From: a virus
Lineage: Duplodnaviria > Caudoviricetes
IMG/VR virus record: IMGVR_UViG_3300014204_000146
Coordinates: 26,592-90,591 of that record
Length of the DNA: 64,000 nucleotides
Direction: 5' to 3' (one strand)
Numbering within the stretch: position 1 is the stretch's first letter; every line of letters begins with the position of its first letter. The notes under the pieces are model-generated. The model did no database searches, was not told the DNA's origin, and was given only the letters and a program-made list of their open reading frames with translations. The position numbers and the translations under genes were made by a program. Positions 3,260 to 7,425 of this stretch are shown here, in pieces.

Positions 3260-6200
3260 GTGAAACTTTTAAATATCAGCAATGAAAATCGATTAATAAC
3301 TCTTTTTTGTCGAGAAGACAATGGAAAACAAGTAATCTATCCCATTGACTCTTATTTTCCTTATTTCTATAATTACGACGAAAGAGGACAGTTAATTGCT
3401 TACGATGGGAAGAGGGTCAAAAGAATTAATTGTAAGAATCCTTCTGATATTTACAAGATGAAAAAAGATGATAGTCCAGAATCAGATGTGATTTATTTTA
3501 AGAGATTCTTAATTGACCGCGTACCCGTAATTGAAAAGACGACAATCAAATATTTCTTTTTAGATACAGAAATGTTGACCAAAGAATTGCCAGACCCGCG
3601 CTTTCCTATACAGCCTGTGAGTTGTATGTCTATCTATAATTCTTTATATGAGAAGGTACAAACGTGGTACATATTGGACTATCCAGGAACACTCGAACAA
3701 CAAGAACGGCAGCTCTTCCAGGATGCGATTAAGTATATCAAAAGCGAAGCGCCCGACCTTATTCTAATATGGAACCGAGATTTCGATTATGACTATCTTT
3801 ATAATAGGTATGATAAACTTTTCAATCCTGATGTTGATACCAGTAATAAATATCACATGACAAGAAACGATTTTGCAACGGCTATAAGTCCTATTATGAG
3901 AAATCGGTCAGGACATCGGGAAGCGGAAACAATGTATCCTGCTGGAATAAGTATTGTTGATTATCTTGAGTGGTATAGGAAGGTTTATAAAACTCTCATG
4001 TCATATGCTTTAGACGATGTTGCTCAAGAAGAATTGGGAGAAGTATCTTGGGGGAAGACAGACTTCTCAGTATTGTCTCCAGATATAAAAGCAAAAAATA
4101 TAAATGATGTACTGAGGATGGCGAAAATAGAAAAGAAAAGACAGCTTATCCCTTATTATGACGAAACGAGACGAATGTCAAAAAGTGTTTGGGAAGACCT
4201 TCATTGGAACTGTTTAGATGAACAAACAGAAATTCTAACAAAAAACGGTTGGAGAAATAGACTTACAATATCTAAAACCGACGAAGTGTTGAGTTTCAAT
4301 TTATTTTCTAAAGAATATGAATATACTCCGATTATAGCAAAAATGGAAAGTTTTTATAAAGGAAACATGATTAATTATGAGCAAGGAAGAGTAAATTTCT
4401 GTGTTACTCCAAATCATAAATTTCCTATGATATTTACAAGAAATGAAGGAAAATATACAGGAACAGAAGAAATATGTTTTGAATATGCAAACTCTATTCC
4501 GACTCAAAGAAGAAGATTTATTTTGGGAAGTATGGGATATAAAGGAGGAAAGAATAATTATTTTAAAGATGAAGAAATTAAACTCTGTGCATGGATTATT
4601 ACAGAAGGACATTTTTTACCAGGAAGCACAAGAGAGTTTGGGGGAGGAATATACATATATCAATCAATTAAAAACGAAGAAAAACAAAATGAAATAGAAA
4701 AAATTTTAAAATCGTTAGATATTCCTTATAAGAAAAAAATTGATAGATTTTTTATTCCTTCTGCTTATGCCACAAAGTATAGAATATTATTAAACAATAA
4801 AAAACAAATTCCTGAATTATTTTTTGAATTGCCAAATCATCAAATGAAATTATTCTTATCTGAAGCTATAAAAGGAGATGGGCATAAAGATGAATTTAGT
4901 CCGTCGGCTTATATTTGTACTTCGGACAAAATTTTGGTTGAACAATATCAAAGATTAAGCGTCTTAGCTGGGTATAATGCGTATATTAGACAAGAAGATG
5001 CTACAGAATGTATGCACAAAAAGCTATTAAAACCCACAATTACATATTATGCTTGTATTTATATAGGAGATAATTATACTATCGAACACAGTCCAAAATG
5101 GAGAAAAGAACTTTTTTATAATGGAATTGTGTGGTGTATTCAAACAAGTTTTCAAAATTTTATCATTCGACGTGCTGGAAAAGTAATGGTCAGCGGTAAC
5201 TCAAAAATCATCGACCAGCTTATTTTGTCAGAAGCCAAACTTCAAAACATTGTTCTTCCTAAAAAGAAATATGGAATGGATATTCCAGAAGGAGATGCTG
5301 AAACATTCGAAGGAGCATATCGCAGAGCAGAACCAGGACGCTATAAATCCACAGAAGAATTGAAATTATGGAAAGTAGATTTGGCTTCAGCGTATCCTCA
5401 AGCTATAATAGATTTTTGTTTAGATACCAGCAATATTGCCAATGAAACAAATGCTTGTGGATTGGGAATAGCAATAAATGGCAATATTTTTCTTCAAAAT
5501 CCAAATGCTCTTTTGCCATCTGTAGCAAGAAAATTGTTGATTAGAAAGGCAGACTTAAAAAAACAATTAAGTTTAGTTGACCCAGAATCTAAAGAAGGAA
5601 AAGACCTTCAAACTAAATATGACGCTGCCAAGGGTCTTGTTAATTCTTTATTTGGAGTTACTGGATTAAAGATTTTTAGATTATTTGATATTAGAGTGGC
5701 AGGAGCCATTCCATTTCTTATTCGTGATGTACTGCATTATGTAGAAGACAATAATGGATTGAAAGTAGTTTATACAGACACTGACTCATTATTTATACTG
5801 TCAAAAGAAAATCCCACAGACAAATTAAATCTTCTGGTACAACAGTGGGTAAAAGAAAAATATGGAAAAGACAGTACCAATATCGAATTTGAATGTGAAG
5901 GCTACTTTGAAAAAATTCTTATTATCACCATGTGTAGATACAAGGGCTGGCTCAGAAAAATGAACGGTAAGTTAAAGGTAGAAATAAAAGGTATTGAATC
6001 GAAGAGGAAAGATTCTTCTACTTATATGAAAAAATTTCAAACAACGCTGATTGATAAGGTAGTAAATGAAGAGCCATATAATTCTACGCTTGCCTGGATT
6101 AAACAAGAAATGGAAGCAATAAAGAAACAGCCAATAGAAAATATTGCATTTCCTTGTAAGATTGCAGCCGGGAAGGAATATGTCAACGAACCTATATTTG

Positions 6201-6595
6201 TCCGCGCTCTTAAATATGCTCAAGAACTGGCTCCGCTATTTAAGAAATATTCAGGAGATGTATTTTTCTGGTTGTATGTAAAACCATTTGGAACTGAAAC
6301 TCGAATGGCTATGAGAACTCATAAGGGTGTTCGCGCTCAGGAAGAGATTAAAAAAGAAAAGGATGTTATAGCTTTTGATTTAGATAATAAACAACACGTA
6401 CCAGAAATAGATTGGGATAAGATGATTGAACGTAATATCCTCAATAAAGTAGAAAATATATTTGAAGCTTTACAGTGGGATATGACCAGTTTATTGCCTC
6501 AAACAATTTCTAAAAAAGAACTTAACAAAGCAATAAAAGAAATAACTCAGGAAGATATATTAGAAGAATTAAAAAGACGGGGAGTTGTAAAATGA
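3260..6595 (+). CDS. polB: family B DNA polymerase with 3'-5' exonuclease, interrupted by an intein
   Basis: ExoI LDTE, ExoII NRDFD; DLASAYP, KGLVNSLFG, YTDTDS. Confidence 0.95.
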   Translation: MKLLNISNENRLITLFCREDNGKQVIYPIDSYFPYFYNYDERGQLIAYDGKRVKRINCKNPSDIYKMKKDDSPESDVIYFKRFLIDRVPVIEKTTIKYFFLDTEMLTKELPDPRFPIQPVSCMSIYNSLYEKVQTWYILDYPGTLEQQERQLFQDAIKYIKSEAPDLILIWNRDFDYDYLYNRYDKLFNPDVDTSNKYHMTRNDFATAISPIMRNRSGHREAETMYPAGISIVDYLEWYRKVYKTLMSYALDDVAQEELGEVSWGKTDFSVLSPDIKAKNINDVLRMAKIEKKRQLIPYYDETRRMSKSVWEDLHWNCLDEQTEILTKNGWRNRLTISKTDEVLSFNLFSKEYEYTPIIAKMESFYKGNMINYEQGRVNFCVTPNHKFPMIFTRNEGKYTGTEEICFEYANSIPTQRRRFILGSMGYKGGKNNYFKDEEIKLCAWIITEGHFLPGSTREFGGGIYIYQSIKNEEKQNEIEKILKSLDIPYKKKIDRFFIPSAYATKYRILLNNKKQIPELFFELPNHQMKLFLSEAIKGDGHKDEFSPSAYICTSDKILVEQYQRLSVLAGYNAYIRQEDATECMHKKLLKPTITYYACIYIGDNYTIEHSPKWRKELFYNGIVWCIQTSFQNFIIRRAGKVMVSGNSKIIDQLILSEAKLQNIVLPKKKYGMDIPEGDAETFEGAYRRAEPGRYKSTEELKLWKVDLASAYPQAIIDFCLDTSNIANETNACGLGIAINGNIFLQNPNALLPSVARKLLIRKADLKKQLSLVDPESKEGKDLQTKYDAAKGLVNSLFGVTGLKIFRLFDIRVAGAIPFLIRDVLHYVEDNNGLKVVYTDTDSLFILSKENPTDKLNLLVQQWVKEKYGKDSTNIEFECEGYFEKILIITMCRYKGWLRKMNGKLKVEIKGIESKRKDSSTYMKKFQTTLIDKVVNEEPYNSTLAWIKQEMEAIKKQPIENIAFPCKIAAGKEYVNEPIFVRALKYAQELAPLFKKYSGDVFFWLYVKPFGTETRMAMRTHKGVRAQEEIKKEKDVIAFDLDNKQHVPEIDWDKMIERNILNKVENIFEALQWDMTSLLPQTISKKELNKAIKEITQEDILEELKRRGVVK
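4211..5200 (+). mobile_element. intein (330 aa) with LAGLIDADG-type homing endonuclease
   Basis: Starts CLDEQTEILTKNGW, block B VTPNHKF, LAGLIDADG-like LCAWIITEG and LSEAIKGDG, ends VMVSGN followed by Ser(+1). Confidence 0.92.
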
Positions 6596-7425
6596 ATATA
6601 GATTTATCTAAATTATCGACAGAAGAATTATTAAAATTAGCATCTTTAAAAGAAGATAAATTCGCGGAGGAAGTGTCGAAACAGACACGCCCTGTTTCCA
6701 ACGGGGAGAGTGAGGCGCAAGTCCTCAACTCCGCTCCAATTTTAATTCCAAAAATAAATAATTATTCTAATGATTTTGATTTATCTAAATTAATAATAAA
6801 AGAAATACCATATTCCGAGGCAAAGCAATATATTAGTAAAAATCATTATAGCGGTTGTTTAGGAAGTTCTATAAGGACTTCTATTGGATTTTTCAATAAT
6901 AATTTATTAGTTACAGCAGTAATTTATGGTTATCCAGTTGGGAGACGAGCAAGTAATTATTTATCACCAAATAAAATAGAAAATGCAGAATTGGTTAGAT
7001 TGTTTAGTCAAGACGGACTACCTAAAAATACAGAAAGTTATTGTATTAGTAAATCATTTAAATTTTTAAAAGAAAACTATTCTGAAATAAAATATTTAAT
7101 ATCTTATGCTGATGGTGCTCATGGACATGTGGGATATATTTATCAGGCAACAAATTGGAAATATATAGGGTCGTCGAATCCGGGGAATGGAACATTTATT
7201 TTAGATGGAAAAAATATTCATCCACGAACGCTTTATGCAAAACATGGGACCAGTGATAGAAATAAAATAAAAACCATATACGGAGAAAGAGTAATCATAA
7301 AACATACCGAAGCAAAATATATTTATATAATGTGTTTAGGAAATAAAAAAGAATGTAGAGAGTGGTATTCTAAATTTAAGCAATTACCATATCCTAAAGC
7401 ACTTAATGATACAATTGTAAAATAA
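6592..7425 (+). CDS. mom: Mom-family (GNAT-fold) DNA adenine modification protein
   Basis: KNHYSG, ELVRLF...PKNTES..IS, LISYADG.HGHVGYIYQATNW; ATGA overlap with the polB stop. Confidence 0.85.
   Translation: MNIDLSKLSTEELLKLASLKEDKFAEEVSKQTRPVSNGESEAQVLNSAPILIPKINNYSNDFDLSKLIIKEIPYSEAKQYISKNHYSGCLGSSIRTSIGFFNNNLLVTAVIYGYPVGRRASNYLSPNKIENAELVRLFSQDGLPKNTESYCISKSFKFLKENYSEIKYLISYADGAHGHVGYIYQATNWKYIGSSNPGNGTFILDGKNIHPRTLYAKHGTSDRNKIKTIYGERVIIKHTEAKYIYIMCLGNKKECREWYSKFKQLPYPKALNDTIVK
6601..6792 (+). repeat. 15-nt direct repeat GATTTATCTAAATTA flanking the tRNA-like element
   Basis: Identical copies at 6601-6615 and 6778-6792, both encoding DLSKL. Confidence 0.8.
6664..6738 (+). tRNA. non-canonical tRNA-Gly(TCC)-like element embedded in the mom CDS
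   Basis: 75 nt. Acceptor GCGGAG/CTCCGC + T73 + CCA; D arm GTGTC/GACAC; anticodon arm CCCTG/CGGGG with loop TT-TCC-AA; T arm TGAGG/CCTCA with loop CGCAAGT. Confidence 0.8.

Follow-up and report, generated by a model that had tools for sequence, protein, structure and literature searches.

Mom of bacteriophage Mu transfers glycine from Gly-tRNA-Gly to adenine in double-stranded DNA, requires the terminal riboadenosine of the tRNA, and accepts every host tRNA-Gly isoacceptor (Silva et al. 2026, PMC13219725). Its use of Gly-tRNA-Gly, which had been invoked in an earlier reading of the present locus made from the letters of the DNA (the sequence-only reading), is thus published, and was also described in a 2023 preprint (bioRxiv 10.1101/2023.03.24.534169). 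Not until 2023-2026 was Mom, whose glycine transfer disguises DNA, shown to be the first enzyme to carry an amino acid over from a charged tRNA to DNA. Mu has no tRNA of its own and scavenges all three host isoacceptors. The Mu Mom papers of 2023 and 2026 make no connection to the RNA described here, and that of 2026 contains no mention of an embedded or phage-encoded tRNA-like RNA (PMC13219725). A tRNA-Gly-like locus within mom is not in itself new, having been published in 2011 as a 76-bp 'pseudo-tRNA' located in the first 150 bp of a mom homologue in ssrA genomic islands of Dehalococcoides (McMurdie et al. 2011, BMC Genomics, PMC3146451). No function was given for the pseudo-tRNA in that paper, and Mom was then believed to act 'via methylation' (PMC3146451).

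Non-proteinogenic tRNA-Gly of Staphylococcus has TGC or TGT in place of TTC in the T loop, which was rationalised as impaired interaction with EF-Tu and with ribosomes (Rietmeyer et al., PMC7826273). These tRNAs are the products of free-standing chromosomal genes, have U8 (s4U8), are detectable as tRNAs, and act outside the ribosome as glycyl donors for FemXAB. The FemXAB transferase has a GNAT fold. tRNA mimics are also known in mRNAs, namely the thrS operator, through which ThrRS represses its own message by means of a tRNA-Thr mimic, and the 3′ tRNA-like structures of plant viruses; these consist of part of a tRNA or of a pseudoknotted 3′ end and are located in untranslated regions.

The locus described here lies in a 64,000-nt stretch (the window) of a 90,591-bp phage genome with 34% GC and one other tRNA (Tyr), and all of its features are on the + strand. 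A family B DNA polymerase gene (polB, 3260-6595, 1111 aa; in the ORF list, Pfam DNA_pol_B E 2e-21), the product of which has an intein-like LAGLIDADG insertion (the match to Pfam LAGLIDADG_3 is weak), overlaps a 277-aa ORF at 6592-7425 such that the polB TGA stop and the ATG of the ORF share the sequence ATGA (6592-6595). A Shine-Dalgarno-like GGGGAG (6579-6584) is located 7 nt 5′ of this ATG. polB is directly 5′ of mom in relatives too, and AGAGGA occupies the Shine-Dalgarno position in 13 of them. The ORF is a genuine Mom gene, matching Pfam Mom PF25680 with an E value of 1e-42 and 146.6 bits (curated cut-off 27.1); the match starts only at residue 67 and covers residues 67-269, the catalytic GNAT-fold domain (6790-7398), which is predicted with a pLDDT of ~90. 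Foldseek analysis of the AF2 model returned Mu Mom on top (8bv8_A and 8bv8_B, E 4.7e-14), followed by GNATs, and Mu Mom (PDB 8bv8) was matched by the family profile from protein alignment A1 with an E value of 1e-33. R136 and S149 are invariant in alignment A1 and are the equivalents of the catalytic R111 and S124 of Mu Mom (aligned at ELNR and at the S124A position), placing the two proteins in the same enzyme family. A single-protein search for related loci gave one distant relative only, and an alignment-based scan was needed to find more.

The mom ORF reads through a 75-nt tRNA-Gly(UCC)-like cloverleaf at 6664-6738, corresponding to nucleotides 73-147 (codons 25-49) within Mom's N-terminal extension, where the element is translated in frame as AEEVSKQTRPVSNGESEAQVLNSAP. 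The arms of the element are the acceptor (6664-6670 / 6728-6734), D (6673-6688), anticodon (6690-6706) and T arms (6711-6727); the anticodon TCC (6697-6699) is a Ser codon in the ORF, and the discriminator U73 is followed by an encoded CCA (together 6735-6738, CCA at 6736-6738) located 687 nt before the ORF end. The cloverleaf is the minimum-free-energy structure of 6664-6738 (-33 kcal/mol, z -3.26; 2 of 200 shuffles were as good), also forms in a 261-nt context, and scores 97.7 bits with covariance model R1. A long-range leader-linker pairing in the 261-nt fold was set aside as AT-rich chance, since relatives whose linkers differ do not conserve it. No other 75-mer of the phage genome is as rich in GC as the element (61%, versus a mean of 34%, sd 6.6). 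The in-frame cloverleaf with its CCA, the TCC anticodon, G1:C72, C2:G71, G3:C70 and U73, all noted in the sequence-only reading, were found as described, as was the ATGA overlap of mom with polB. The stretch joining the element to the Mom domain has no in-frame ATG, GTG or TTG. With C35 and C36 also present, the window element has the complete set of G1:C72, C2:G71, G3:C70, C35, C36 and U73, which we take to be the bacterial GlyRS identity set, together with U33 and A37. The core departs from a canonical tRNA, having A8, C14, A18, C19 and C54-G55-C56 where U8, A14, G18G19 and T54-Psi55-C56 would be expected; the claimed loss of G18G19 is therefore correct, the D loop being without GG and the T loop beginning with CGC, and there is a G7.A66 mismatch. 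The check by tRNA finders proposed in that reading had a negative outcome: ARAGORN, at default settings or relaxed down to 70%, did not recognise the window element or any of its relatives as a tRNA, and Rfam gave no tRNA match at E <= 10 for any of them. This silence reflects the deformed core and not a missing fold.

Comparison of 19 distinct homologues, enlarged to 24 by five more distant members, showed that it is the RNA that is conserved. Each of the 19 elements is exactly 75 nt long, pairing holds for 99.5% of stem cells (versus 38-56% in slid controls), two-sided compensatory changes are found at 13 of the 20 stem pairs, and the score was reached by 0 of 500 shuffles; with the five distant members added, 17 of 20 pairs covary. 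G1:C72 and C2:G71 are present in 24/24 and C35, C36 and U73 are invariant, with the remaining stem pairs varying freely. The third acceptor pair is one of these (GC in 10 and AU in 7 of the 19), so that the proposed identity set is complete in the window but does not extend to 3:70 across the family. The anticodon is UCC in 18/19 and ACC in one, and the 3′ end is an invariant UCC followed by A in 18/19, with divergent ends in locus L100 (CCG) and in L002 (UCA). A8 and C14 are invariant, and the D-loop GG is kept in 3/19, one member, L100, having both this GG and a UUCGAGC T loop. Two proposed hallmarks hold for the window and not for the family: CGC in place of TPsiC is an exception to the UGC found in 15/19, and A51:U63 is one state of a variable pair (GC 9, AU 6, UA 3, GU 1), the T-stem pairs 49:65, 50:64 and 51:63 all being variable and so giving no uniform prediction for EF-Tu binding. 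The G7.A66 mismatch is invariant in the window's subfamily. The covariation argues that 6664-6738 is a true RNA gene under selective maintenance, with tRNA-Gly(UCC) as its origin, and that it was taken in frame into the 5′ portion of mom.

The opposite reading, in which the peptide is the conserved object and the cloverleaf a chance fold, draws on the motif FA.EVSKKT...ES.VQ..N.AP, which is recognisable in protein alignment A1, and is effectively refuted by the covariation and codon-identity results. Identity by codon position is flat in the element (0.785/0.759/0.752) compared with 0.82/0.84/0.64 in the Mom core, and its non-stem third positions are 0.87 identical versus 0.64 in the core. Compensatory changes alter the encoded residues, and those of the anticodon stem differ radically among homologues (RPVSNG, CGTSSS, YSDSIG in alignment A1). 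Residues 20-53 have a pLDDT < 50 in the AF2 model and are predicted to be disordered, and the reading frame of elements at the 3′ end of mom differs from that of the 5′-type. Due to this flat periodicity, the radical residue changes, the predicted disorder and the other frame in 3′-type elements, the encoded peptide is read as a passenger on a conserved RNA fold, in agreement with the expectation that cloverleaf and anticodon would be conserved among related mom genes and the peptide would not. The 24-codon leader (MNIDLSKLSTEELLKLASLKEDKF; 6592-6663) is conserved as a peptide, with codon-position identities of 0.80/0.98/0.78, a TCN-to-AGY serine switch and an AF2 helix at residues 10-19; the AT-rich linker from the element to the Mom domain (6739-6789) has an amino-acid identity of 0.20 and is predicted to be disordered. 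A direct repeat (77% over 35 nt, core GATTTATCTAAATTA) flanks the insert, with copies at 6596-6630 and 6773-6807 spaced 177 nt (59 codons) apart. The leader is probably a duplicate of the N-terminus of Mom itself, and an ATG at 6770, 3 nt 5′ of the downstream copy and out of frame by one base, is what a remnant of the ancestral mom start would look like.

Covariance-model matches lay exclusively at the borders of Mom-type genes, either 5′ or 3′ (~123 Mom loci), with element scores of 33-100 bits versus 24 bits or less for ordinary phage tRNAs. The window subfamily scores 86-100 bits, and Chloroflexi and 3′-type elements 33-51 bits. R1 and R2 also have matches at the mom 5′ edge in MAGs of Chloroflexi and SAR202, with E values for Chloroflexi MAGs of 1e-8 (L119), 5e-6 (L111) and 8e-10 (L113). 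Placement varies from codon 10 to codon 55, to a position fused behind polB, or to the mom 3′ end. One locus (L087) encodes a PolB-Mom fusion, and another (L003) has two tandem, divergent mom paralogues, each with an identical copy of the element. Mom subfamilies just 34-38% identical to each other share the element module, and elements of 67-73% GC are found in GC-rich genomes (L068, L077, L111, L119). Approximately 90% of the Mom loci examined are without such an element. Each genome has one copy, and no free-standing copy was found among the loci examined, all elements being inside or abutting the mom ORF; near a close Mom relative without the extension (P0020, L150) there were only ordinary Asp, Glu, Lys, Ser and Tyr tRNAs (15-24 bits). 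The module was found once on a DruA/DUF4338-family gene (L094), where an hhalign comparison of the Mom alignment with the DruA-like protein was confined to the tRNA-coded peptide; a literature search on DruA and Mom gave no relevant paper. On these matches, the family of tRNA-Gly-like RNAs occurs only against Mom-type genes, apart from this single case.

Compared with the Dehalococcoides pseudo-tRNA (anticodon DCC), the window element is likewise a complete cloverleaf, with UCC, in the 5′ coding region of mom. It differs in being 75 and not 76 nt long, in its 90-kb AT-rich phage carrier, in the coupling of mom to polB, in its 24-codon leader, in the G7.A66 mismatch invariant in its subfamily, and in its UGC/CGC T loop. 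The likeness to staphylococcal non-proteinogenic tRNA-Gly(UCC) pointed out in the sequence-only reading holds in part. The anticodon is UCC in both, Psi55 and G19 are lacking (the D loop of the window element is without GG), and the T loop, UGC/UGU in staphylococci, is mostly UGC in the element family but CGC in the window; the likeness falls away for the variable A51:U63. Unlike those tRNAs, the element has A8 and C14, sits inside an ORF and is missed by standard tools, its role as donor is putative, and nothing points to a shared origin of the two. As in the thrS operator and the plant-virus structures, a tRNA-shaped fold in a messenger is tied to a protein or synthetase that binds that tRNA; unlike these, the element is a complete four-arm cloverleaf, translated in frame, and its CCA is internal, in contrast to the CCA free at the RNA 3′ terminus by which viral 3′ tRNA-like structures are recognised. 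Mu scavenges its glycyl carriers from the host, whereas the window phage has the element inside mom itself.

The best-supported reading, which we give an even chance of being right, is that the element RNA would be a private glycyl donor dedicated to Mom. The polB-mom transcript would have two fates. Ribosomes starting at the coupled ATG (6592) would translate through the element and produce Mom with a disordered linker, whereas untranslated copies would fold, be cut by RNase P at 6664 and be trimmed at the 3′ end to the encoded CCA at 6738. Host GlyRS would charge the released RNA via the invariant G1:C72, C2:G71, U73, C35 and C36. Owing to its deformed core and elbow (A8 and C14, G18G19 missing, G55 for Psi55), the RNA would be poorly used in translation, and the glycyl-element would stay available to Mom for formation of N6-carbamoylmethyl-adenine in phage DNA. 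The fuller form of this proposal, in which one bifunctional mom message provides both codons 25-49 and a processed, GlyRS-charged tRNA-Gly unused by the ribosome, and competition between translation and excision sets the ratio of enzyme to donor, is tentative and rather doubtful. Several observations count against a donor. Excision would destroy the mom mRNA, leave polB without a stop in the PolB-Mom fusion and remove the mom stop in 3′-type loci. A private donor is not required, since Mu Mom uses all host tRNA-Gly isoacceptors and ~90% of Mom loci are without the element. The CCG and UCA 3′ ends and the lack of a free-standing copy among the loci examined also count against it, and RNase P or GlyRS might likewise be hindered by the loss of U8/A14 and the elbow.

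The main rival, which we regard as unlikely yet deserving of serious weight, is a cis-acting tRNA mimic that would stay in the mom mRNA, with no functional tRNA ever set free, and that would either bind Mom in autogenous repression or attract RNase P and so curb the lifetime of an mRNA for a potentially toxic enzyme. The mom gene of Mu is toxic, with translational control via mRNA structure and Com. A cis role fits an element that, in the loci examined, lies without exception within or next to the mom ORF, the separate copy kept by each of the tandem paralogues, and the cost of efficient excision in the PolB-Mom fusion. The variable placement makes a role dependent on the ribosome-binding site unlikely, the invariant C35, C36 and terminal CCA correspond to the needs of GlyRS and of an acyl donor, and Mom has been suggested to read mainly the 3′ acceptor end (PMC13219725). 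An ordinary decoding tRNA-Gly(UCC) that happens to overlap mom and adds to the supply for GGA/GGN codons in an AT-rich phage is improbable: the full cloverleaf with U33, UCC, A37 and CCA, the 34% GC genome with its single other tRNA, and the D-loop GG and UUCGAGC T loop of L100 speak for it, but ARAGORN and Rfam recognise neither the window element nor its relatives, most members are without U8, A14, G18G19 and Psi55, and the linkage to Mom is strict. Codon supply is not the common factor, because the element accompanies Mom in GC-rich genomes too. We hold as very improbable a selfish or mobile N-terminal cassette, spread by recombination and tolerated since it is in frame, with no function for Mom; the direct repeat flanking the insert, the identical modules on divergent paralogues, their sharing by Mom subfamilies of low identity and the occurrence on the DruA/DUF4338-family gene speak for it. 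Set against this are the single copy per genome and the restriction to Mom-type GNAT genes, and mobility alone leaves purifying selection on the tRNA-Gly identity positions and four stems unexplained. An attP or integration site was rejected in view of the whole cloverleaf with covarying stems, the lack of integrase context and the single copy.

A tRNA-Gly look-alike kept by selection, taken with the chemistry of Mom, suggests that some phages and islands carry an enzyme and the carrier of its co-substrate as one unit. If the dedicated-donor reading is true, the element would be a second natural tRNA specialised away from the ribosome, after the staphylococcal cell-wall tRNA-Gly, and a rare sequence serving as translated codons and a complete tRNA at once, and would explain how Mom competes with EF-Tu for Gly-tRNA. 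If the message is bifunctional, occasional transfer of the module to a DruA/DUF4338 gene would be a hint of Gly-tRNA dependence in this Druantia-related family as well. RNAs of this type are missed by tRNA finders and masked when ORFs are annotated.

A promoter and terminator scan around the element gave nothing over shuffle expectation, and a weak promoter-like TCGACA-16-TAGCAT is present at 6616-6643. Searching genome contigs with a degenerate DNA pattern gave 0 matches and no clue to the host. The sequencing sets with this sequence, none of them listed as RNA, are landfill and groundwater metagenome contigs, and one possible RNA run covers 6300-6379 only.

The mom gene is a single ORF of 277 aa (window 6592-7425) assigned to the Mom family by Pfam (PF25680, E 1e-42), with the domain beginning only from residue 67. 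A profile made from the Mom protein alignment (A1) hits the crystal structure of Mu Mom, 8bv8 (E 1e-33), the family-invariant R136 and S149 being the counterparts of R111 and S124, which were shown to be essential in Mu Mom; 8bv8 is also the best structural match of the AlphaFold model of the mom product, followed by other GNATs. The mom ATG shares ATGA (6592-6595) with the stop of the upstream family-B polymerase gene, polB, and GGGGAG lies 7 nt upstream of the mom ATG. PolB itself (3260-6595) has 1111 aa, compared with ~760-780 aa in most relatives, and its inserted block, which starts CLDEQTEIL and has a weak LAGLIDADG_3 match (residues 529-579), is likely an intein with a homing endonuclease; the 1086-aa PolB of homologous locus L101 seems to carry an intein too.

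In the N-terminal extension of mom, the minimum-free-energy structure of window 6664-6738 is a 75-nt cloverleaf (-33 kcal/mol, z -3.26), which is retained when folded in a 261-nt context. This element has the anticodon TCC (6697-6699), G1:C72, C2:G71, G3:C70, a G7.A66 mismatch, U73, an encoded CCA, the D loop CGAAACAG without GG, and the T loop CGCAAGT; the sequence-only reading had described the window sequence correctly throughout. Its GC content of 61% is the highest of any 75-mer in the 90,591-bp phage record (mean 34%, sd 6.6). In the 261-nt fold the leader (6595-6635) pairs with the linker (6757-6800), enclosing the cloverleaf (6621-6632, for instance, is 92% complementary to 6757-6768); relatives whose linkers differ do not keep this pairing, which may have arisen by chance in AT-rich sequence. 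By the usual tests the element is not a tRNA. ARAGORN called no tRNA anywhere in the window, and the relaxed search that had been suggested produced hundreds of false calls before it made one at the element, which was itself out of register. Rfam returned no tRNA match to the element at E <= 10, and the universal tRNA core is absent (A8 not U8, C14 not A14, no G18G19, G55 not Psi55). No canonical tRNA-Gly was found in the phage genome, the sole canonical tRNA of which is a tRNA-Tyr(GTA) outside the window (G000:C1:3784-3862).

A protein search identified 46 Mom homologues, about 19 of which share the N-terminal extension. Nineteen distinct element DNA sequences were collected, 9 via their proteins (imposing no RNA constraint) and 10 via degenerate DNA patterns. 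In those 10, the patterns predetermined part of the D arm, of the anticodon loop and of the T loop; stem covariation and the slid controls are unaffected by this. The 19 sequences are related (effective number 1.65-2.9); every one is exactly 75 nt long, and their alignment has no gaps. Standard pairs occupy 99.5% of 380 stem cells, compared with 38-56% when the 3' partners are slid; two-sided compensatory changes occur at 13 of 20 pairs (84 cells), and the covariation score was matched by 0/500 shuffles. Adding five more distant members gave covariation at 17/20 pairs, in an alignment that was fitted to the model and leans towards structure. The element is far beyond chance, and the cloverleaf that the sequence-only reading proposed to look for in related mom genes is kept, with covarying stems, in 19 distinct homologues.

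The same reading proposed testing whether the cloverleaf is conserved while the peptide is not, and the codon data indicate that it is. Pairwise identity by codon position is flat in the element (0.785/0.759/0.752), compared with 0.82/0.84/0.64 in the best-conserved Mom block, and third positions outside the stems are 0.87 identical. The anticodon stem is always paired (CCCUG/CGGGG, CCUUG/CGAGG, CGGAA/UUCCG, CUCCG/CGGAG, CUUGA/UCAAG), while the residues it encodes change radically (RPVSNG, CGTSSS, RLSSTK, YSDSIG, HSNSNR). The segment FA.EVSKKT...S..ES.VQ..N.AP can still be recognised in the protein alignment between Mom domains just 34-38% identical. AlphaFold pLDDT stays under 50 across residues 20-53; in the Mom domain it is about 90. 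The leader (MDLSKLSNEELLKL...) does look translated, with second codon positions 0.98 identical and a serine switch from TCN to AGY, and AGAGGA is conserved ahead of the mom ATG. On the codon-position, non-stem identity, pLDDT and leader data, the extension region is at once translated and constrained as RNA.

G1:C72 and C2:G71 are present in 24/24 elements, and G53:C61, C35, C36, A37, U73 and CC are invariant, positions which we take to be the bacterial GlyRS identity set plus the acceptor end. Pair 3:70 is G:C in 10 elements and A:U in 7; A51:U63, stressed in the sequence-only reading, is not conserved in the family. The anticodon is UCC in 18/19 and ACC in one; overall, ACC was seen in two elements (L095:1706-1780 and L002:2028-2103), and the L002 element has UCA at its end in place of CCA. 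In 18/19 the elbow is broken: sixteen elements combine the D loop CGAAA[AC]AG (one variant CAAAAAAG) with the T loop [UC]GC[AG]AG[UA], GG is present in the D loop of three, two of which have lost C56, and a canonical-looking elbow (UUCGAGC) occurs only in L100, which ends CCG.

About 123 Mom loci, taken from prokaryote genomes and viral contigs, were scanned with two covariance models (R1 and R2). Matches were confined to the edges of Mom-type genes, with elements scoring 33-100 bits and ordinary phage tRNAs 15-24 bits; about 90% of Mom loci, like Mu, have no element, and the phage genome has one element copy and one Mom. Elements lie at the 5' end in the window family, Chloroflexi and SAR202 MAGs (L111, L113, L119) and an Acidimicrobiia MAG (L118), and at the 3' end in L002, L068, L077, L137 and L142. 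In L002 and L077, for which ORFs were listed, the element is part of a C-terminal extension that follows the PYPK motif; its reading frame is a different one, and the stop of its ORF overlaps the next gene's start. The element family occurs in landfill, groundwater and sediment metagenomes. The same module accompanies a 55% identical Mom (P0006) labelled by NCBI as coming from a Candidatus Lokiarchaeia MAG, which is probably a binned phage contig because the module's U73 discriminator and encoded CCA look bacterial.

The leader and element are flanked by a 35-nt direct repeat (6596-6630 and 6773-6807; spacing 177 nt, or 59 codons) with the core GATTTATCTAAATTA (15/15 exact). At 6770, 3 nt ahead of the downstream copy, is an ATG shifted by one base from the Mom frame, and the native N-terminus of relatives (FDLKKLEIKEL) resembles the leader (DLSKLSNEEL). 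The repeat and the out-of-frame ATG look like the scar of an old insertion that would have duplicated the start of mom. Two tandem divergent mom paralogues (L003:412-1383 and L003:1504-2400) each open with a nucleotide-identical leader and tRNA-like module and finish with a shared EKREEDRQTEKQEEER tail, a pattern suggesting gene conversion or a recent exchange of the module; judged from such sequence patterns, the module is mobile. In L087:4180-7380 (- strand), polB has no stop before the element and reads on through it and Mom as a 1066-aa fusion ORF lacking the MDLSKL leader; this fusion could be genuine or the product of an assembly frameshift.

In line with the sequence-only reading, Gly-tRNA-Gly is the source of the glycine that Mu Mom places on adenine of dsDNA (PMC13219725; bioRxiv 10.1101/2023.03.24.534169); Mu Mom needs the terminal riboadenosine, works with each of the three E. 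coli isoacceptors and does not accept Gly-tRNA-Ala (PMC13219725, which makes no mention of tRNA-like, embedded or phage-encoded RNAs). As a sequence feature, the element is not the first of its kind: a conserved 76-bp tRNA-Gly-like 'pseudo-tRNA' (anticodon DCC) was published, with no function proposed, from a deep-sea fosmid and from Dehalococcoides ssrA islands, where it lies within the first 150 bp of the mom homologue (McMurdie et al. 2011, PMC3146451). [quoted passage not shown] Our literature search found no paper tying these three subjects together; the functional link between the element and tRNA-dependent DNA modification is unstated in the searchable literature and directly testable.

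We give about an even chance to the element being Mom's private glycyl donor, which RNase P would cut from the transcript and which, once trimmed and charged, would be poorly used by EF-Tu and the ribosome and used by Mom. This is favoured because the conserved positions, anticodon included, are the ones needed by GlyRS and by an acyl donor, the element's place along the message is free, its reading frame differs among lineages, its linkage to Mom-type genes is strict, and its elbow damage parallels that of the staphylococcal non-proteogenic species, the sole known tRNA-Gly class specialised for a transferase. The main difficulty is cost, as excision would destroy the mRNA of mom, or that of polB in L087. 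That cost, and the retention by every paralogue of its own copy, keep in play a tRNA mimic acting in cis, which we consider doubtful. It is unlikely that the element is an ordinary decoding tRNA or a purely selfish cassette, or that an explanation at the peptide level holds. The observation first made from sequence is confirmed, and the interpretation given with it is supported in part.

The element most similar to that of the window (L094:2574-2648) occupies codons 10-34 of a 262-aa ORF (L094:1890-2675, - strand) matching Pfam DruA/DUF4338 (E 2.9e-11) and, weakly, Mom (E 0.054, motif YKADNW). The module was not found in the other 119 of the 120 listed homologues of this protein. One homologue, P0065, has both Pfam labels, a hint that this Druantia-related family resembles Mom and may likewise depend on Gly-tRNA. 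In mom itself, no in-frame ATG, GTG or TTG was found between the element and the Mom domain.
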